Positions 1,678 to 60,510 of a stretch of 64,000 bases of DNA are shown piece by piece. The first letter of the stretch is position 1, and the number at the start of each line of letters is the position of its first letter. Origin of the DNA: Candidatus Campbellbacteria bacterium (GTDB lineage Bacteria > Patescibacteriota > Minisyncoccia > Phycocordibacterales > EsbW-18); assembly GCA_045863475.1 (NCBI GenBank), contig BTUR01000002.1:410-64409 (forward strand), written 5' to 3'. The notes under the pieces are model-generated. The model had not been told where the DNA came from. It saw only the letters and a program-made list of their open reading frames with translations, and did not search any database. The translations under genes and the position numbers were made by a program.

Positions 1678-2640
1678 ATGAAATTTGAAAGACCCCCCAG
1701 CAATCCTGCGGAGACCCAGTACGGCTCATATCTCGAGAAAAACGAAACGCTCATTGAACGGGCGCACGAGAAAGCGGCAGCCCTCATCGCTCGTGAAGCT
1801 GTCGACCCGAAAGGGTTTGATGACGTGTACTCGTCCGATGAGATTGAAAATGACTTGAAGCGCGTTGCAGAGCGCACGGCGACGTTTGAGAACAAAGACC
1901 GTTCGTCGCTTATGGATAAGGCGGCGCTTGCAGCGGAGGCGCTCATGTACGAGCAGGTTGGCAAGAGCGACTGGCTGTCCGGAGAAGGGGTGAAAGTATA
2001 TCCGGAGAAAACAACTGACTCCGATGATATTTTCAATAAGACCGACTTGGTGCTGACGTTTGAAACAGGGGAAGACGAGGAACCGCTTGCGGTGACGGTT
2101 GATGTGACCATCGGTATGCGCACGCTCACCGAGAAAATTCACTCAATTAAACAGGAAATTGATACGCAGTCACTGACGACGGTTAAGTATCACGAAACAC
2201 CGTCAGGAGAACATGTACCGCTGGAAAAAGCACCGCGGGTTATTCTTGGGATAGAGCCGGAGACGCTCATGGAGCTCCTGCCGTTATGGCTGACAGGTGA
2301 TGCACAAGGCAGGGAACGACTCAAGACACACCCGGTACAACTGGATGTGGCACTGGCGATTGAGATGCAGCTGAAGGCCTATGAAGAGTATGCGCGTACT
2401 ACAGGAAAGGAAAACACGGCCGATCGTTTTAAAGCTGCCTCGGGTATTATTACAGCGATTTGTCGGGGAAAAGTACGAAGCAGCACTGAACCTGTGAAAA
2501 GAAAAGAAGGCCGCCTGTTGCGTGACTTGCGTACGGCACTTGATTCCCAACTCTTGAACCCTTCATCAAAAAAGGTTCTGAAAGAAAGTTCTCTTGAGGA
2601 GCGTAAACGTTTGGAGATTATCAAACGTTTGCGGCGCTAG
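1678..2640 (+). CDS. Hypothetical protein (320 aa), acidic, no recognisable domain
   Basis: Long ORF with native-like codon usage that begins 2 nt after tRNA-Glu. Function unknown. Confidence 0.5.
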   Translation: MKFERPPSNPAETQYGSYLEKNETLIERAHEKAAALIAREAVDPKGFDDVYSSDEIENDLKRVAERTATFENKDRSSLMDKAALAAEALMYEQVGKSDWLSGEGVKVYPEKTTDSDDIFNKTDLVLTFETGEDEEPLAVTVDVTIGMRTLTEKIHSIKQEIDTQSLTTVKYHETPSGEHVPLEKAPRVILGIEPETLMELLPLWLTGDAQGRERLKTHPVQLDVALAIEMQLKAYEEYARTTGKENTADRFKAASGIITAICRGKVRSSTEPVKRKEGRLLRDLRTALDSQLLNPSSKKVLKESSLEERKRLEIIKRLRR

Positions 2641-3605
2641 AGTGCAGACACCCTCTCGTTGCCGCATTCTTTCTGTATCGTCGTACCGTCTTTCTCCAGA
2701 TAGACGGTCGTTTCTTTTGTGGTGTACGAAAAATCTTCCGGGTTGATGGAGAGTGTTACGAAAAGGCCGCAGCGAACGTTGTCGTTCCAGTACTGGTCAA
2801 AGACGAGATTACCGAGCGAGTAATAAATGTCTTTTCCGTTGTAGGTCTCGCGTGTCTGTATGACGTGCGGGTGGCCGCCAACGATAAAATCTGCTCCGGC
2901 ATCAATGAACTCCCGAGCAAGGGCTTTCTGATATTCGTTCGGCTCATTCGTGTATTCGTATCCCCAATGCGTGAACACGACCACGAAATCTGTCGTCGTT
3001 GCGAGCGAGCGGATAGTGGCAACGACATCGTCTTTTCCCGGTGGAAAGAATTCGTTAAATCCGACGAAACCAATGCGTGTTCCGCGGATGTCCTGTATGT
3101 GGTGCGTCTGCGCGAACGGCTCGCCGAAGTATGAGAGTCCAACGTCGCTGAGATGTTGTTTTGTCTGTGAAAGTCCCGGGTTGCCGAAATTAAATACGTG
3201 GTTGTTGGCGAGCGAGAGTACGCCGATATTGGCGCTCGTGAGTGCCTCGACCGTCTTCGGTGAGAACGTAAACACGTAGTTGTTCTGCTCAAGCGGCTTT
3301 GAGCCCTGGCTGACCGATTCGAATGTGGTGACCGATCCCTCCAGATTCGCAACAACAACATCGTGTGATGAGAAGAGAGGCGCGAGAGGTGCAAGGATGG
3401 CGTCATACCCAAGCAGTTCTGCTTTTTGACGGATGTATCGGTCAAACATGAGGTCACCACCGAAGCCGATGACAACGGGTTCTTGTTTTGGAGAAAGGCG
3501 ATTGACGATGTGTTGCAGCGGCGTCGGCGCACCTGCGGGGCGCGGGAAGGTGAGTATTCCGGCAACAAGTGCGACAACGACAATAATCAACCAGCCCTTT
3601 TTCAT
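2637..3605 (-). CDS. CapA/PgsA-family metallophosphatase (poly-gamma-glutamate synthesis-type), membrane-anchored
   Basis: MKKGWLIIVVVALVAG signal/TM, then calcineurin-like motifs (GDLMFDR, GGHPH). The upstream ORF extension overlaps tRNA-Val and is discarded. Confidence 0.7.
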   Translation of the reverse strand: MKKGWLIIVVVALVAGILTFPRPAGAPTPLQHIVNRLSPKQEPVVIGFGGDLMFDRYIRQKAELLGYDAILAPLAPLFSSHDVVVANLEGSVTTFESVSQGSKPLEQNNYVFTFSPKTVEALTSANIGVLSLANNHVFNFGNPGLSQTKQHLSDVGLSYFGEPFAQTHHIQDIRGTRIGFVGFNEFFPPGKDDVVATIRSLATTTDFVVVFTHWGYEYTNEPNEYQKALAREFIDAGADFIVGGHPHVIQTRETYNGKDIYYSLGNLVFDQYWNDNVRCGLFVTLSINPEDFSYTTKETTVYLEKDGTTIQKECGNERVSAL

Positions 3606-7718: not shown

Positions 7719-8639
7719 TTAGTGAGCTCGCGCTTTCAGGTGGAGATACAGGTCTTCAAGTGCGCGCACGGCGTCGCCGGCGGCGATGTTGTTTTGATGG
7801 TAGCGGACGTTCGTGCAGTCACCCGCGGCCCAAATCCCCGGAATGTTTGTTGCGTTGGTCCACGGGTCGATTTCGATGCGTCCGTATTCGTCCAGCGCAA
7901 GAAGTTCTTTCGCAAAATCCGTGTTCGGCAACATGCCGATTTCCACAAAGATGCCGGTGACGGGAAGTGTGTGCTCACCACTCTGGTCTTCGTAGGTGAG
8001 GCCGGAGACAAACGCGTCTCCCGTAACCCCTGTGATGCGCGCGCCGGTGATGACCTTCATGTTGGGGTGGGCGGATACTTTTTGTACCGTTATGGCGTCT
8101 GCTTTGAACGTGTCGCTTCGGTTGAGCAAGGTGACTGATGTGCAGTAGGCGAGGAGTTGTGCGGCGCTTTCAAATCCGGCGTTGCCGCCGCCGATGACCG
8201 CAACGTCTTGGCCCGCGAAGACGGGACCGTCACATGATGCGCAGTACGAGATACCTTTGTTCTCAAACTGTTCCGCGCCGGGAACGTCGAGTTTTTTGCG
8301 TGACGAACCGCTTGTTATGAGAATGCTCCGCGTTGTGTAGGATGCCTTATCGGTTGCAACGGAGAATTCGTCATCTTTCTTTGTGATGCCGGTAACCCGC
8401 TCTCCCGTGTTAATAGTGATGAACGAGTCTGCGTACGCGCGGATGTGGGCCTCAAATGCTTTTGCAAGTTCGTTGCCGGGAATAGACGGTGTGCCGATCC
8501 AGTTTTGTATGTCGGGGGAGACGACGCTCTGTCCGCCGAAATCAGGTGTAATGAGCAGTGTTTTGAGTTGTTTGCGCGCCGCGTAGACCGCTGCTGCGGT
8601 TCCTCCGGGTCCTGCGCCGATGATGATGAGGTCGTACAT
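7719..8639 (-). CDS. trxB: Thioredoxin-disulfide reductase
   Basis: GAGPGG FAD motif, CASC redox-active site, GGGNAG NADPH motif. 306 aa. Confidence 0.9.
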   Translation of the reverse strand: MYDLIIIGAGPGGTAAAVYAARKQLKTLLITPDFGGQSVVSPDIQNWIGTPSIPGNELAKAFEAHIRAYADSFITINTGERVTGITKKDDEFSVATDKASYTTRSILITSGSSRKKLDVPGAEQFENKGISYCASCDGPVFAGQDVAVIGGGNAGFESAAQLLAYCTSVTLLNRSDTFKADAITVQKVSAHPNMKVITGARITGVTGDAFVSGLTYEDQSGEHTLPVTGIFVEIGMLPNTDFAKELLALDEYGRIEIDPWTNATNIPGIWAAGDCTNVRYHQNNIAAGDAVRALEDLYLHLKARAH

Positions 8640-15952: not shown

Positions 15953-16300
15953 TCAACTCTTCGGTTGAGTGACCCCGGCTTCGATTTCTGCATGGCAATT
16001 CTTACAAACAAGGGTGCATTTTTTTGCTTCTTTCACGATGCTTTCCCACGAATAGGAGAGTCCTTTAACACTTAATGCAAATTCCTTCTTTTTTGAATCA
16101 ATATGGTGAAAATCAAGAGCACCAATGTATTTTTTGTATCCGCAAACGGAGCATTTGCCGCCGAATAACTGTACAAGGCGAGCTTTCTTACCTCGCCTGT
16201 TTTTGACGACCCACGCAGACGCACATTTTCCGCAACGGTACGAACCATCGGGTCGAAGGAAATGTTTTGTTGAGCCGTGTTTTCTACAGATTCGATTCAT
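15953..16300 (-). CDS. Free-standing HNH endonuclease with Zn-finger, adjacent to the intron-containing tRNA
   Basis: CxxC..CxxC plus DFHHIDSKKKEF..CKNCHAEIE (HNH motif). AT-rich codon usage unlike the core genes. Confidence 0.7.
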   Translation of the reverse strand: MNRICRKHGSTKHFLRPDGSYRCGKCASAWVVKNRRGKKARLVQLFGGKCSVCGYKKYIGALDFHHIDSKKKEFALSVKGLSYSWESIVKEAKKCTLVCKNCHAEIEAGVTQPKS

Positions 16301-16381
16301 TGTGCGAACAGTATAACACCACGTGTTAAGGTTGTCTTTTCCCGATAATTCTCTATACTATTTTTAGATGTTCCACAATAT

Positions 16382-16680
16382 TCCGGTGTAGCTCAATGGT
16401 AGAGCAGCGCCCTGTAACACTTGCAGCTTTCTCGAGTAATCGAGATCGAACACGAGGTGAATTCGGTGAAACCCTTCATGTATTTGTGGGGCAATACCGA
16501 GCCAAGCCGCGCACGGCGCGGAAGGTGTAGAGACTATCCCTTCAGGGAGTACTTCTTCGGAAACGAAGCGGGAAGCGCCTCGCCCCCATCATGGTGGGGT
16601 GATGATATAGTCCATACCTGTAGGTAACTACGGGATTCTATGTAAGGCGTTGGTTGTAGGTTCGAATCCTACCACCGGAG
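16382..16680 (+). tRNA. tRNA-Asn(GUU) interrupted by a group I intron. Exon 1 is 16382..16415 and exon 2 is 16643..16680.
   Basis: The spliced product TCCGGTG TA GCTC AATGGTA GAGC A GCGCC CTGT|TAA GGCGT TGGTT GTAGG TTCGAAT CCTAC CACCGGA G has U1-A72 and a CUGUUAA loop, as in bacterial tRNA-Asn. Confidence 0.7.
16416..16642 (+). ncRNA. Group I self-splicing intron (about 227 nt, no internal ORF) in the anticodon loop between nt 35 and 36
   Basis: P1 (exon CUGU : IGS GCAG, U.G at the splice site), P2 CTCGA-GTAA-TCGAG, P7 GACUAU/AUAGUC with a G-binding site, GAAA and GUAA tetraloop hairpins (P8/P9), and an omega-G at 16642. Confidence 0.7.
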
Positions 16681-16693
16681 CTGAGGATAAAGA

Positions 16694-16719
16694 AAAAGCA
16701 CCCGAACGGGTGTTTTTTC
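16694..16719 (+). terminator. Intrinsic terminator after tRNA-Asn
   Basis: GCACCCG aa CGGGTG followed by TTTTTTC. Confidence 0.6.
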
Positions 16720-19894: not shown

Positions 19895-20464
19895 ATGACA
19901 AATGACGCGCGCGTGAACACAGAAAACGAAATCGCGGTGTTCGGCGGAGGATGTTTTTGGTGCACTGAAGCAGTTTTCAAAGAACTTCGCGGTGTAGTTT
20001 TCGTTGAGCCAGGATATACCGGCGGAACAAAAGAACGTCCAACGTACGAAGAGGTGTGCTCGGGAACGACCGGTCACGCAGAGGCGATTCGCATCACGTA
20101 TGACCCGAAGCTTATCGCGTTCCGCGATCTCCTCACCGTGTTTTTTGCGACGCACGATCCGACGACACCAAACCGGCAGGGAAATGACGTCGGCACGCAG
20201 TACCGCTCAGCGATTTTTTACACGACACCGCAACAAAAAGAAGAAGCAGAGCGTTTTATAGCCGAGCTTGAAAAGCAGAGCACACTCGGCGGACACGTGG
20301 TTACCGAAATTACTCCATTGAGTACGTTTTTTGAAGCGGAAGGATACCACCGAGACTACTTCGCGCGGAATCCGGAGAAAGCGTACTGTCAGCTTGTTAT
20401 CAATCCGAAACTGGAGAAGGTACAAAAACAGTTTGCGGAGCTTTTGAACGATCACACACTGTAA
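19895..20464 (+). CDS. msrA: Peptide methionine sulfoxide reductase MsrA
   Basis: GGGCFWC active-site motif. Confidence 0.9.
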   Translation: MTNDARVNTENEIAVFGGGCFWCTEAVFKELRGVVFVEPGYTGGTKERPTYEEVCSGTTGHAEAIRITYDPKLIAFRDLLTVFFATHDPTTPNRQGNDVGTQYRSAIFYTTPQQKEEAERFIAELEKQSTLGGHVVTEITPLSTFFEAEGYHRDYFARNPEKAYCQLVINPKLEKVQKQFAELLNDHTL

Positions 20465-30502: not shown

Positions 30503-31054
30503 ATGGCATATAATTTCACACACCTGAAGACAAAAACGAAAGAAATCGGCGACTGGCTCGGGAAGGAACTTTCTGCAATTCACACCGGTCGTGCAAGCGC
30601 CGCGCTTCTTGACGGTATCCGTGTGTCTGCATACGGCAGCATGATGCCGATTAATCAACTCGCCAACATCGGTGTTGAAGACGCGCGCACAGTGCGCATT
30701 ACGCCGTGGGATCACAGCGTGGCCAGCGGTATTGAAAAAGCGATTCAAGACGCGTCGCTCGGCGTATCAGTCGGCAACGACGGCAAGGGTATACGCGTTT
30801 CGTTTCCGGAGCTGACCGGCGAGAGTCGGGAGAAGTACGTGAAAATTGTCGGCAAGAAGCTCGAAGAAGCACGCATTTCGGTACGTTCTGCTCGTGAGGA
30901 AGTATGGAGCGATATTCAGAAACAGGAGAAGGATGGCGCAATGAGCGAAGATGACAAATTCCGCGCGAAAGAAGAAATGGAAAAAATAATCAAAGAAGGC
31001 AACGAGGCGCTCGACGCACTCGCTGAGAAAAAGGAAAAGGAAATCCTCGGCTAG
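30503..31054 (+). CDS. frr: Ribosome recycling factor
   Basis: Full-length RRF pattern (..LGKELSAIHTGRAS..LDGIRV..YG..). Confidence 0.9.
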   Translation: MAYNFTHLKTKTKEIGDWLGKELSAIHTGRASAALLDGIRVSAYGSMMPINQLANIGVEDARTVRITPWDHSVASGIEKAIQDASLGVSVGNDGKGIRVSFPELTGESREKYVKIVGKKLEEARISVRSAREEVWSDIQKQEKDGAMSEDDKFRAKEEMEKIIKEGNEALDALAEKKEKEILG

Positions 31055-47196: not shown

Positions 47197-47343
47197 CAGC
47201 CCGCTCCGGGCCACGACTTTGCCGCCGCTATCGTTTTTACAACGATGACGGCGGCATTTCTTTTGTACCCTGTTGCTCCGCGGCATTTTTTGTTGTAGTA
47301 TCGTTTGCACCGCCCACGGGGCGACTTTTCTTTTATGGATGCC

Positions 47344-47455
47344 GTTAGAGATATCATAGGTTCTCTAAACAAAATGCATAAAAATACTGAGTATAGAAAA
47401 TAAATTTACGAAATCGACATCACTACGGAAAACAAAGTTTTCCCATCTCTAACGG
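47344..47455 (+). repeat. Perfect 11-bp inverted repeat pair (CCGTTAGAGAT ... ATCTCTAACGG) enclosing a 90-nt AT-rich spacer and ending 1 nt before the typA ATG
   Basis: Left arm 47344-47354, right arm 47445-47455. The same arms recur before rnc. Confidence 0.7.
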
Positions 47456-47456
47456 T

Positions 47457-49241
47457 ATGGAAGTACGAAATATAGCCATCATCGCGCACGTCGACCACGG
47501 AAAAACGACACTCACCGACGCCCTCTTACGTCAGTGCGGCGCCGTCGCCGAGGGTATTACCATGGACTCCAACACACTTGAACTTGAGCGTGGTATTACC
47601 ATTTACGCAAAAAATGCATCGGTGTCGTACCGTGGCACCAAAATCAATATTGTGGACACGCCCGGACACGCTGACTTCGGTTCAGAGGTGGAGCGCGTGC
47701 TTCGCTCGGTGGATTCCGTGCTGCTCGTTGTTGATGCGCAGGAAGGCCCCATGCCGCAAACTCGGTTTGTTTTGAAGAAGTCACTTGAGCTCGGCTTGCA
47801 CCCCATCGTCGTTATCAACAAAATCGATAAGCCGGCGGCAAATCCTGCACACGCGGAAGAGCTCGTGCTTGAGTTGTTTCTTGAACTCGGTGCAAACGAT
47901 GAACAGGCGAATTTTCCCGTGGTGTACGCAGTCGGCCGCGAGGGTATTGCCAAGAAAAAACTTGAAGACACTTCAACCGACCTCACACCGCTTCTTGACG
48001 TCATCCTTGAACACGTGCCGGCGGCAGGTGCGGGGGATGAGAATAAAACACTCCGTCTACAACCGTTTAACCTCGGCTATGACAACTTCCTCGGGCGTCT
48101 TGCCGTTGCGCGTGTCTATGAAGGCAGTGTGTCAGCGAACCAAAACGTGTTCATAAAAAAGGCAACCGGAGAAACGCGTGAGGGAAAAATCACCAAACTG
48201 TTTACATTCAAAGGACTTGAAAAGGTGGATTCTAAAGAAGCCGGTGCAGGTGACATTGTCATGATTGCCGGATTGCCGGATATTGATATTGGCGAGACGG
48301 TGACGACGGACGCATCCGTGGAGCCGTTGCCGGCGATTGCTGTTGATGAGCCGACCATCACGCTAAACTTTTTGGTGAACAACTCGCCGTTTACCGGACG
48401 CGAGGGAAAATTTGTGACCTCACGGCAGATTCGCGAGCGCCTGGAGCGCGAGCTTGAGGTGAACGTCGGATTACGCGTGGATTTCGATACATCTGAAAAC
48501 TTTGTCGTCTCGGGGCGCGGTGAACTGCACATCGCAATTTTGCTTGAAAACATGAGCCGCGAGGGGTATGAACTGCAGGTGTCACAGCCGCACGTCATCA
48601 CCCACGAAGAGAATGGAGTAAAAACGGAACCGTTTGAAGAAGTGGTTGTGGACACGCCGAACGAATTTCAAGGAGTCGTTATTGAACGCCTTGGTAAGCG
48701 CGGATTCGTCCTGCAAAACATGCGCATGCACGGAGAAACCGTCCGCCTCATTTTTGAAGGTCCGACGCGCGGTCTTTTGGGATACCGAAACCAATTCATT
48801 ATTGATACAAAAGGCGAGGGGATACTCTCCTCGCGCGTTGTCGGCTTCAAACCGTTTGCCGGCGAGATTGTGAAGCGTCCGACGGGTTCGATGATTTCCA
48901 TGGTCTCCGGCAAGACGCTCGGATATGCGCTCTGGAACTTGCAGGAGCGCGGCGTGCTGTACGTCGGTCCGGCGACTGAAGTGTATGAAGGCATGGTCAT
49001 CGGCAACACATCCAAGGGTGAGGAGATGCCAGTGAATCCGACGAAGGGAAAACAGCTGACCAACATGCGCGCATCTGGCTCTGATGAAGCGATTAACCTC
49101 GTGCCGCCGTTCACACTTTCCATTGAGCGCGGGCTGGAAGTCATGGCGGACGATGAGTATCTCGAAATCACACCGAAATCCGTTCGTCTGCGCAAACAAC
49201 ACCTCTCCGAGCTTGAACGAGCCCGCGCTCGCAGAAGTTAA
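47457..49241 (+). CDS. typA: Translational GTPase TypA/BipA
   Basis: [14 protein letters not shown]1, DTPGHADF G2/G3, NKIDK G4, and a C-terminal BipA domain. Confidence 0.9.
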
Positions 49242-58809: not shown

Positions 58810-59709
58810 ATGAGTAATCGCCACTTAGCGAGATCAGTTGTTCTTCAGACGCTTTTCCAGATCGATTTCTCCTCGGTATCACCGAAGGAGGCCGATGGGA
58901 TTCTATCGCATGTCGCGGACGAATACGCGCCCGGCATCAGCGAGAAGGATTTCATGAGATCGCTCTTGAAAGGAGTTATCCAGAAGCGTAAGGATCTCGA
59001 CACCATCATCGAGAAGGCCGCACCTGAGTGGCCGATAGACAAAATCTCGCTTGTTGACCGAAACGTTCTGCGTCTCGGACTCTTCGAACTTCTGTTCGGC
59101 GACCGCGCGCACGTACCGGCGAAAGTCGCCATCAACGAAGCCATCGAGCTTGCCAAAAGCTTCGGTGGGGACTCAAGCGGTCGCTTCGTCAACGGCGTGC
59201 TCGGTTCCGTCTACAAAGAACTCGGCGAGCCGGGGAAAAACGAAACGTCAAAGAAGAAAAAAGATGTGCCGTATGATGAGATGCCGCAAGAAGTACTCGG
59301 CGGTGCATTCGTCTACGCGCGCCACGAGGATGACATCTACATCGCGTTTGTGCACGACGTATTCGGTCACTGGACGCTTTCCAAGGGTCGGATTGAAAAC
59401 GGTGAAGACGTGCGCACGGGAACGGCGCGCGAGATTCAGGAAGAATTGGGTCTGGAGGTGGCGATTCAGGAAGAAATTGGCAGCAACGAGTACATCGCAT
59501 CGCATCCGGAGAAGGGAAAAATGCGCAAGCGCGTCACGTACTTTATTGCAGAGGCACCGTTTCGCGATTTGAAACTTGGCACGTCCGGCGGTCTCGACGA
59601 TGCTCGATGGTTCCGCCTCAGTGAAATCGTGAATCTCAATATCTACGACGACATTCTGCCGCTCATCACAAAAGCAATCACTCTGCTCTCACAAAAGCAG
59701 CACACGTAA
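58810..59709 (+). CDS. nusB: NusB (antitermination factor) fused to a C-terminal NUDIX hydrolase domain
   Basis: N-terminus ARSVVLQTLFQIDF...AINEAIELAKSFGGDSSGRFVNGVL is NusB. The C-terminus has GRIENGEDVRTGTAREIQEELGL, a canonical NUDIX box. Confidence 0.75.
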   Translation: MSNRHLARSVVLQTLFQIDFSSVSPKEADGILSHVADEYAPGISEKDFMRSLLKGVIQKRKDLDTIIEKAAPEWPIDKISLVDRNVLRLGLFELLFGDRAHVPAKVAINEAIELAKSFGGDSSGRFVNGVLGSVYKELGEPGKNETSKKKKDVPYDEMPQEVLGGAFVYARHEDDIYIAFVHDVFGHWTLSKGRIENGEDVRTGTAREIQEELGLEVAIQEEIGSNEYIASHPEKGKMRKRVTYFIAEAPFRDLKLGTSGGLDDARWFRLSEIVNLNIYDDILPLITKAITLLSQKQHT

Positions 59710-59717
59710 TCATGAAT

Positions 59718-59817
59718 CCCGTTAGAGACCACTCGCGTATGTTCGTGCCCACTATTCAAAAAATATTGATGTATTGTTCGTATGCACACGAAAGTGTGAT
59801 AACCATTCTCTAACGGG
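59718..59817 (+). repeat. Second copy of the inverted-repeat pair (CCCGTTAGAGA ... TCTCTAACGGG) with a 78-nt spacer, ending 1 nt before the rnc ATG
   Basis: Left arm 59718-59728, right arm 59807-59817. The spacer is unrelated to the copy before typA. Confidence 0.7.
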
Positions 59818-60510
59818 ATGAAAGATTTTGCTCCACTAGAAAAAAAAATCGGACACACATTCGCCGACCAGTTTTTGCTTACAACGGCGTTGACGCATCG
59901 CTCCTTTATCAATGAGTCACGCAAGCACGGCGGCACGCACAACGAGCGTCTTGAGTTTTTGGGCGACGCGGTCTTGGAACTCATCACGACGGAATTTTTG
60001 TATGCACGCTACCCGCACAAAGCGGAAGGCGATCTCACCTCGTACCGTGCAGGACTCGTCAATACGTCCACACTTGCAACGGTTGCACTAGAGCTGGGTG
60101 TCAACGACTTTTTGCTGCTGTCAAAAGGAGAGTCAAAAGATACCGGTCGCGCGCGGCAGTATATTCTTGCCAACGCGTTTGAGGCAATCGTCGGTGCGTT
60201 GTTTCTCGACGGCGGTTACGAAGCCGCCCGTGCATTCGTTTCAAAGTTCCTCTTGCCGCTGACGGAAGATATTGTCGGCAAACACCTTTGGCGCGACGCA
60301 AAAAGCCGTTTTCAGGAAAAAGCGCAGGAGAAAGTCGGTATCACACCGTCGTACAAAACAACCCGGGAAGTAGGACCCGACCACGACCGCGAATTTACCG
60401 TTGCCGTTTTTTTGGGCGACGAGAAAGTTGCCGAAGGGGCGGGGAAGAGCAAGCAGGAAGCGGAACAGTCCGCTGCGGGCAACGCACTTGAGAAGAAACA
60501 CTGGTCTTAA
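59818..60510 (+). CDS. rnc: Ribonuclease III
   Basis: ERLEFLGDAVL RNase III signature and a C-terminal dsRBD. Confidence 0.9.
   Translation: MKDFAPLEKKIGHTFADQFLLTTALTHRSFINESRKHGGTHNERLEFLGDAVLELITTEFLYARYPHKAEGDLTSYRAGLVNTSTLATVALELGVNDFLLLSKGESKDTGRARQYILANAFEAIVGALFLDGGYEAARAFVSKFLLPLTEDIVGKHLWRDAKSRFQEKAQEKVGITPSYKTTREVGPDHDREFTVAVFLGDEKVAEGAGKSKQEAEQSAAGNALEKKHWS

Follow-up and report, generated by a model that had tools for sequence, protein, structure and literature searches.

The two inverted-repeat pairs that precede typA and rnc in the window (the whole 64-kb stretch of DNA analysed) are young insertions of a MITE-like element. Each copy lies between duplications of its target at a site that is empty in close relatives, and each rebuilds the start codon into which it fell; both belong to a family with many copies elsewhere, the orientation of which is biased relative to the adjacent gene. 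The reading favoured here, to which we give a probability of about 0.8, is that the pairs are independent, lineage-specific insertions of one non-autonomous transposable element (MITE).

Structure of the two window copies

Both pairs consist of the 10-bp arms CCGTTAGAGA and TCTCTAACGG (Table 1). The exact 10-mer CCGTTAGAGA was found four times in the 64-kb window, twice in each orientation, against about 0.12 occurrences expected for a random 10-mer over both strands of 64 kb, and no third copy was detected in the window with up to three mismatches allowed or by the covariance model. The perfect repeat measures 11 bp in copy 1 (CCGTTAGAGAT/ATCTCTAACGG), where it encloses an interior of 92 nt with 30% GC, and 13 bp in copy 2 (ATCCCGTTAGAGA/TCTCTAACGGGAT). 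The preliminary description had recognised the 11-bp repeat before typA and had placed the end of the right arm correctly at 47455, but its spacer of 90 nt is corrected here to 92-94 nt and its start, 47344, lies 2 nt too high (47342). The single nucleotide that it reported between right arm and ATG recurs with the same spacing at both genes (T at typA, G at rnc). Two features had been missed: each copy sits between direct repeats that hold the start codon (tATGGA-TG-[arms]-T-ATGGAagt for copy 1 and ATGAA-TC-[arms]-G-ATGAAaga for copy 2), and both share an interior hairpin immediately 5' of the right arm. The spacers, described as unrelated, do differ apart from this hairpin.

Table 1. Positions of the two element copies and neighbouring features in the window
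Feature	Position	Strand	Remarks
Native typA leader	47296-47334	+	-10-like TAGTAT 47296-47301; GC hairpin CGCCCACGGGGCG 47311-47323; T-run abutting the original start codon
Left copy of original typA start	47335-47403	+	ATG 47335-47337, now first codon of a 22-codon uORF (MDAVRDIIGSLNKMHKNTEYRK, then stop)
Left TSD of copy 1, TGGA	47336-47339	+	direct repeat with 47458-47461
MITE copy 1, 118 bp	47340-47457	+	covariance model 76.7 bits; AT-rich interior
Left TIR of copy 1, TGCCGTTAGAGAT	47340-47352	+	
Arm pair 1, CCGTTAGAGA...TCTCTAACGG	47342-47351 / 47446-47455		followed by T 47456 and typA ATG 47457
Subterminal hairpin of copy 1, GGAAAAC-AAA-GTTTTCC	47427-47443	+	
Right TIR of copy 1, ATCTCTAACGGTA	47445-47457	+	terminal A forms the first base of the typA ATG
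typA CDS	47457-49241	+	TypA/BipA GTPase, 594 aa; Pfam GTP_EFTU and BipA_C
Right TSD of copy 1, TGGA	47458-47461	+	bases 2-5 of the typA CDS
Left copy of original rnc start	59712-59813	+	ATG 59712-59714, 2 nt past the nusB-NUDIX stop; heads a 33-codon uORF
Left TSD of copy 2, TGAA	59713-59716	+	
MITE copy 2, 102 bp	59717-59818	+	covariance model 53.5 bits
Left TIR of copy 2, TCCCGTTAGAGA	59717-59728	+	
Arm pair 2, CCGTTAGAGA...TCTCTAACGG	59719-59728 / 59807-59816		followed by G 59817 and rnc ATG 59818
Hairpin of copy 2, CACAC-GAAA-GTGTG	59785-59798	+	
Right TIR of copy 2, TCTCTAACGGGA	59807-59818	+	terminal A forms the first base of the rnc ATG
rnc CDS	59818-60510	+	RNase III, 230 aa; Pfam Ribonuclease_3 and dsrm
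Right TSD of copy 2, TGAA	59819-59822	+	bases 2-5 of the rnc CDS

The GC hairpin of the native typA leader was terminator-like in the scan. The uORF of copy 2 ends at a TAA within the right arm (59811-59813), 4 nt upstream of the rnc ATG. Upstream of this copy, the window encodes NusB fused to a NUDIX hydrolase domain (58810-59709, 299 aa), with rnc 2-3 nt downstream, a layout that is kept in relatives with L32 upstream and SMC downstream; the SMC of the window is a short form. The NusB-NUDIX fusion and the short SMC, together with a closer named Rnc homologue (76% identity) that bears the label Campbellbacteria, mark the window organism as a Patescibacterium of the Parcubacteria type.

Elsewhere in the window, an Rfam group I intron (16405-16634, + strand, 60.3 bits) is followed from about 16650 by DNA with the translation 'VVGSNPT', typical of tRNA T-arm DNA, and is adjoined by an HNH-like ORF (CxxC...HHID...CxxCH; 15953-16300, - strand); the intron in this region (15953-16700) probably splits a tRNA gene that ARAGORN did not call. 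At about 26000 the genes change from lying mostly on the minus strand (1-26 kb) to lying mostly on the plus strand (26-64 kb), a change like that seen at a replication origin; GC skew is positive across the whole window.

Empty sites and target duplications

At rnc, a relative whose Rnc is 97% identical to that of the window (L202) reads nusB ...cacaagTAAtc/ATGAAAGATTTTGCC (nusB-TAA-tc-ATGAAAGAT), with the element absent, and removal of 106 bp from the window gives a gapless alignment to this genome of 1595 nt at 91.9% identity. Relatives at 84-86% identity are likewise empty (empty sites at rnc, L202-L206). At typA, L209-L211 read ...ggggcgacttttctttt/ATGGAAGTT (...cttttctttt-ATGGAAGTT); in the empty relative whose TypA is 92% identical, the same leader (TAGTAT, GC hairpin and T-run) directly joins ATGGAAGTT, and the empty orthologous typA sites in close relatives comprise L209-L212. 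A wider sample of 80 metagenomic typA loci (68-78% identity) was empty at 79, the sole occupied locus (L170) carrying a copy with variant arms. The three occupied typA sites (the window, L074 and L170) are polyphyletic by TypA identity and their interiors are unrelated, showing that the same nucleotide position was struck independently. The covariance model found only the 2 copies in the window and 3 copies in 465 kb of relatives.

Identical 4-bp flanks in a fixed register were present in 92 of 139 elements among the copies listed; TGAA was commonest, followed by TAAA and TGGA, and the majority conformed to TNNA. About one third of the copies listed were without a perfect duplication, a share that is high for copies chosen by their perfect arms. 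Several copies that end in C..G read aATGAA-CC...GG-TGAA ahead of a long ORF with a GTG start, from which it follows that the duplication is 4 bp long and that the base completing the start codon belongs to the element.

The preliminary description had argued that the pair was not a MITE. This view has to be abandoned, since both copies are flanked by target duplications, their sites are exactly empty in close relatives, and they belong to a multi-copy family with TIRs. The element thus combines TIRs, a TSD, empty orthologous sites and a small, multi-copy form without a transposase ORF; the remaining attribute of a MITE, a cognate autonomous IS with the same TIRs, was not found in 1.38 Mb of loci, the annotated window or viral contigs.

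The element family

The pattern CCGTTAGAGA-N70-100-TCTCTAACGG was searched in one genome per species (596 Gb) and gave at least 120 matching genome stretches, where chance alone would give about 17 in a collection of this size. Hosts among the matches listed include many Patescibacteria lineages, Omnitrophota, Planctomycetota, Elusimicrobiota and delta-proteobacteria, together with Nitrospirota-type bins, WOR-3 and Ignavibacteria, and some genomes hold several copies per 8 kb. The element measures about 100-120 bp overall (90-121 bp between arm ends), with total lengths clustering at 112-119 bp among the copies listed; it has TIRs of about 12 bp (12-14 bp), 5'-YCCCGTTAGAGA...TCTCTAACGGGR-3', and is without an ORF of its own, containing only short, non-conserved uORFs.

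When 69 copies were oriented by their internal asymmetry and then aligned, the consensus was 5'-[TNNA]-Y-C-CCGTTAGAGA-Y...AT-rich...A-C-GG-(stem-loop-stem)-CC-T-R-TCTCTAACGG-G-R-[TNNA]-3'. The outermost pair was T..A in 48 and C..G in 20 of these 69 copies, and the pair immediately inside the 10-mer was T..A in 38 and C..G in 27. Long-range pairing of the arms was kept in 99% of cases over the 69 copies. The subterminal hairpin, which is GC-rich, variable in sequence and placed immediately inside one arm, showed compensatory changes at five of its seven pairs with 86% of cells paired, a level that shuffled and slid controls came nowhere near; the aligned interiors held no other conserved sequence. 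Variant subfamilies have both arms changed symmetrically (CCGTTAGAAA/TTTCTAACGG, CCGTTAGAAG/CTTCTAACGG and CCGTACGAAA/TTTCGTACGG), a pattern that selection for pairing could likewise produce.

In Patescibacteria, Omnitrophota, Planctomycetota and others the arm core is flanked by CC..GG, and only the outermost pair differs (T..A or C..G). The identity of the 10-bp arm core across phyla indicates horizontal spread among ultra-small and groundwater lineages.

Tandem or nested arrays were observed at three loci (L038, 5474-5709; L006, 5900-6277; L147, 230-440), where neighbouring elements share one duplicated ATGAA, which shows repeated insertion into a regenerated target; some of these arrays mix arm variants (CCGTAGTAGAAAA and CCGTACGAAA). 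In a further subfamily the arm occurs a third time, inside the element, and this internal copy is able to pair with the adjacent terminal arm (L005, L010, L014, L037, L040, L056, L066, L083, L085, L109 and L117). Hosts of this subfamily are Omnitrophota, delta-proteobacteria, WOR-3 and Nitrospirota-type bins; it has two GC-rich hairpins (such as CCACCGAC-TAAA-GTCGGTGG), and its flanks are nearly always GTAAA.

Insertion at start codons and orientation

Copies ending in T..A, essentially all of which are from Patescibacteria, lay exactly 1 nt before the ATG or GTG of a long ORF in 63 of the 75 cases among the copies listed. The preliminary description had named random placement relative to start codons as an outcome that would speak against its motif, and on this point it was borne out, the phasing being both non-random and general for copies of the Patescibacteria type. 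In this phylum the point of insertion lies within a start codon, the A being parted from the TG (A/TGRA, the slash marking the point of insertion, with a 4-bp TSD that is mostly TGAA). The duplicated TG, together with the terminal A of the element, then rebuilds ATG at the right junction, or GTG through a terminal G in the C...G-ended variant, and the left junction retains the original ATG or, in ATGA junctions, the overlapping stop codon of the upstream gene. The fixed 1-nt distance from arm to start arises because insertion at A/TGRA regenerates the start codon.

Counted in the same loci after removal of the elements, the pentamer ATGRA occurs 168 times at called starts, 489 times between genes and 2076 times within coding sequence. 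Starts would be expected to take about 6% of random ATGRA insertions, and about 26% if all coding insertions were lost, whereas the observed occupancy of start codons is 84%. Target preference combined with the loss of coding insertions does not explain this excess. The reconstructed targets show a preference only for ATG-R-A, and no extended motif was found upstream of the ATG in the target profile. The occupied start abuts or overlaps the stop codon of the upstream gene in 17 of 52 cases, and 8 of these 17 are ATGA overlaps, at which the TGA is kept at the left junction and the downstream ATG is rebuilt at the right by way of the duplicated TGAA. Such stop/start overlaps are "safe harbours" for insertion; loci of this kind include L022, L021, L063, L075, L093, L099:3090, L106 and others.

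The element also has a preferred orientation. In the T..A class the hairpin faced the gene in 42 copies and pointed away from it in 4 (copies listed). Replication-strand bias was considered as the source of this asymmetry and rejected, since orientation follows the gene: where the adjacent gene lay on the minority strand of its locus, the hairpin faced the gene in 10 of 10 cases. The C..G-ended copies, found mostly in SD-using phyla, are usually sited elsewhere than at a start codon; here the hairpin end pointed toward an ORF 8-21 nt away in 15 copies, against 2 in which it was distal, and the element is frequently directly upstream of GGAG.

At one locus (L071, 2776-2888) two divergent ORFs, a TGT of 405 aa and one of 89 aa, each start 1 nt from an arm, and the flanks are inverted, not direct, repeats (gcgctcATC...GATgagcgc). 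Recombination between two copies may have produced this element.

Translation context and a possible role in initiation

SD-like motifs precede 9.5% of ORFs at T..A-class loci (background 8.2%) and 24.7% at C..G-class loci (background 9.7%). In many of the inserted genes the left ATG is preceded, at a distance of 6-9 nt, by a -10-like box, the layout of leaderless genes. The same holds in the window, where gene starts (for example 2637-3605, 7719-8639, 19895-20464 and 30503-31054) are without Shine-Dalgarno motifs and many genes have a TAnnnT box 6-9 nt 5' of the ATG, as in leaderless mRNAs. The layout of the typA leader (promoter-like box, GC hairpin and T-run abutting the ATG) is present in most of the 80 relatives, its sequence differing and its layout remaining the same (window 47296-47334; L123-L201); this leader may act in attenuation or offer ribosomes a landing site that does not depend on an SD. 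The right arm itself was considered as the -10 box of a leaderless start and set aside on inspection, its spacing and sequence not fitting TAnnnT.

The element would be co-transcribed with the gene that it precedes, and its RNA is predicted to fold so that a long-range stem of 13-14 bp stacks on the hairpin. The copies that endure would be only those whose site and orientation still allow translation of the downstream gene. More than 60 independent Patescibacteria genes, many of them essential, carry the element in hosts that apparently do without Shine-Dalgarno use; a structured insert of 115 nt between ribosome entry and ORF should be lethal, yet it is tolerated in one orientation, and this makes the rules of start-site selection in uncultivated bacteria directly testable.

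These observations raise the possibility, a doubtful one in our judgement, that the element is a mobile translation-start module, targeted to, or retained only at, initiation regions, with its hairpin-proximal end serving the downstream gene. Such a role would add to the MITE reading and not exclude it. It might be exercised through an RNA-processing site that yields a 5'-terminal AUG and hence a new leaderless mRNA (cf. tRNA punctuation and RNase III sites), through a ribosome relay by way of the uORF from the left ATG, or through an insulating structure. In its favour are an occupancy of starts above that predicted from target motif and selection, an orientation that follows the adjacent gene, independently of the strand majority of the locus, and the presence of copies before essential genes (PheT, DnaG, SMC, PriA and TypA); T..A-class hosts are non-SD with many inserted genes of leaderless type, where an insert of this size should silence the gene unless compensated, and in SD-using phyla the family keeps its gene-proximal hairpin and its place before the ATG, upstream of GGAG. 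Against this, the insertions are sporadic and young, without clade-wide conservation, and the hairpin is the only conserved feature of the interior. Mismatches within the hairpin gave no RNA-strand signal either (13 G-T against 9 A-C).

The uORF evidence points both ways. A uORF from the left ATG reaches a TAA or TGA in the right arm in 10 of 52 copies, compared with 4.5 in shuffles (p=0.014), and does so in copy 2, which gives the layout of a relay from nusB through the uORF to rnc; however, the end point is variable and is not conserved in about 80% of copies, and reaching the right arm had no clear link with coupled stop/start sites. A conserved uORF was accordingly rejected, given the variable end points and an excess reaching the right arm that is only weak. 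A translated insertion, an intron or a translational bypass was rejected as well, the periods of the element not being multiples of 3.

A wider form of the module proposal, which we consider rather doubtful, would see in these sequences a cross-phylum mobile family specialised in initiation sites, occupying the start codon itself in SD-less bacteria and the position just upstream of the SD in SD-using phyla, and actively re-establishing downstream expression by a processed 5'-terminal AUG ("punctuation") or a uORF ribosome relay, so that it would be a portable translation-start module and not a passive parasite.

On the practical side, gene callers will encounter start codons in duplicate at element sites, along with spurious 'MNPVRD...' peptides, and the element is a useful marker of recent strain divergence.

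Mobilisation

Under the MITE reading, a putative transposase supplied in trans would make a 4-nt staggered cut at the target. Searches of 1.38 Mb of loci, of the annotated window and of viral contigs revealed neither an autonomous copy nor a transposase, and the mobilising enzyme and mechanism therefore remain a proposal; the viral contigs contained no match to the element itself. Arm pairs 130-4000 bp apart were considered as candidate autonomous forms and rejected, as they enclose no transposase (L002 and L105 hold ordinary genes).

Site-specific or single-strand recombination (by a tyrosine or serine recombinase, integron-like attC chemistry or an HUH/IS110-type enzyme) in place of a DDE transposase, with TGAA as a crossover core and not a staggered-cut duplication, is unlikely. 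The core shows a strong bias, toward TGAA among T...A-ended copies and toward TAAA among C...G-ended ones, the element has a set orientation at a target that is itself asymmetric, the flanks are non-identical in one third of copies, and abutted ends would give a lox-like palindrome, TCTCTAACGGGA-TGAA-TCCCGTTAGAGA, which is seen in tandem copies; a subterminal hairpin is typical of single-strand transposons, and by inspection the arm GTTAGAG/CTCTAAC resembles the attC core GTTRRRY. Nevertheless, at least 16 different flanking 4-mers occur, usually identical on both sides, as in a duplication and not a fixed core, and HUH elements are not known to leave a duplication. The attC-like boxes are moreover in inverted order. 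An attC site is ordered 5'-R'' (RYYYAAC)...L''/L'...R' (GTTRRRY)-3', with extrahelical bases; in the element GTTAGAG stands at the 5' end and CTCTAAC at the 3' end, L boxes are absent and the interior of 80-100 nt is not one continuous stem, so that an integron attC site was rejected.

Regulatory and DNA-switch readings

The preliminary description took the pair for a functional cis element: a conserved RNA stem, or paired operator half-sites, controlling ribosome-associated genes by sequestering the initiation region. This is now very improbable. Both window genes are indeed ribosome-related, and in the predicted folds of both copies a long-range stem closes the element and pairs the AU of the AUG (energy z-scores -2.5 and -3.5), so that the stem stands as a prediction but its dedication to typA and rnc does not. 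Neither gene has the element in its closest relatives, and 79 of the 80 typA loci are without it as well, which is hard to reconcile with a dedicated regulator, and its target duplications mark the copies as insertions; nothing was found in favour of regulator half-sites. Elsewhere the genes behind the element encode an amidase, glycosyltransferases, PriA, DnaG, SMC, UvrC, PheT, TGT and transketolase. With downstream functions so diverse, the expected enrichment before ribosome-related genes is not seen, and the ribosome link in the window is a coincidence. Rfam scans of the window copies, the element region and 18 element-bearing loci assigned no family to the elements. The cis-regulatory reading is largely refuted by the empty sites.

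An inverton, in which the arms would be invertase recombination sites flipping a promoter-bearing interior, is hardly credible: short inverted repeats do surround an AT-rich segment directly 5' of genes, and the same arms recur at many loci, but the traits of an inverton (an internal promoter, both orientations, a nearby invertase) were not observed: a consensus scan found no sigma-70-like promoter in either window copy, a position-weight matrix over 69 copies gave no forward-strand excess (mean 5.6 bits forward, 6.4 bits reverse), the assembled orientation is biased 42 to 4, the annotated parts of the window hold no recombinase gene, and direct-repeat flanks with empty sites denote insertion.

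Comparison with known systems

DDE transposons of the IS1380/piggyBac type have ends CC(C)...(G)GG and a TSD that is TTAA in piggyBac and 4-5 bp in IS1380. The element resembles them only in its end dinucleotides and in a 4-bp duplication with T first and A last, a resemblance that suggests a possible kinship and does not classify the element.

Mycobacterial MIRUs (Supply et al. 1997) are reportedly intercistronic and operon-oriented, with small ORFs that overlap the flanking stop and start codons as a translational relay. Window copy 2, between nusB-NUDIX and rnc, has the same relay layout; MIRUs, however, are tandem direct repeats without TIRs, and the relay frame of the element is intact in only about 20% of copies.

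A full-text literature search with the arm sequences returned only primer-like coincidences, nothing relevant was found on MITEs in Patescibacteria or at start codons, and neither 'start codon' nor 'translation initiation' occurs in the text of a 2024 MITE review. MITEs are known to create promoters, terminators and RNase sites, and we found no described case in which one rebuilds a start codon; none of Correia, ERIC, RUP, REP2 or MIRUs is reported as inserting into a start codon. The element is apparently undescribed.

Among bacterial MITEs, Correia/CREE (Neisseria), ERIC and RUP are co-transcribed with neighbouring genes, and in Correia elements an expression signal, a -10 box derived from TA, arises where the element joins the duplicated target, and the stem formed by the TIRs is cleaved by RNase III (PMC10969869, PMC3184786, PMC2649163). 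The present element has in common with MITEs of this type a length of about 100-150 bp, TIRs, a TSD, multiple copies, the lack of an ORF and, by prediction, a long hairpin in mRNA. It differs from Correia in its TIR sequence, in arms of 12 bp and not 26 bp, in a 4-bp TNNA duplication in place of TA, and in its hosts, which belong to several phyla other than that of Neisseria; it also sits inside the start codon, regenerates ATG or GTG, and carries no detected promoter signal. A parallel in placement is with Neisseria REP2 and the Borrelia upstream repeats (PMC3184786), which like the element lie directly upstream of many unrelated genes, fused to the translational start. REP2 brings its own promoter, RBS and ATG (PMC3184786), whereas the element contributes no more to the start codon than its A or G, and it shows TIRs, duplications and empty sites.
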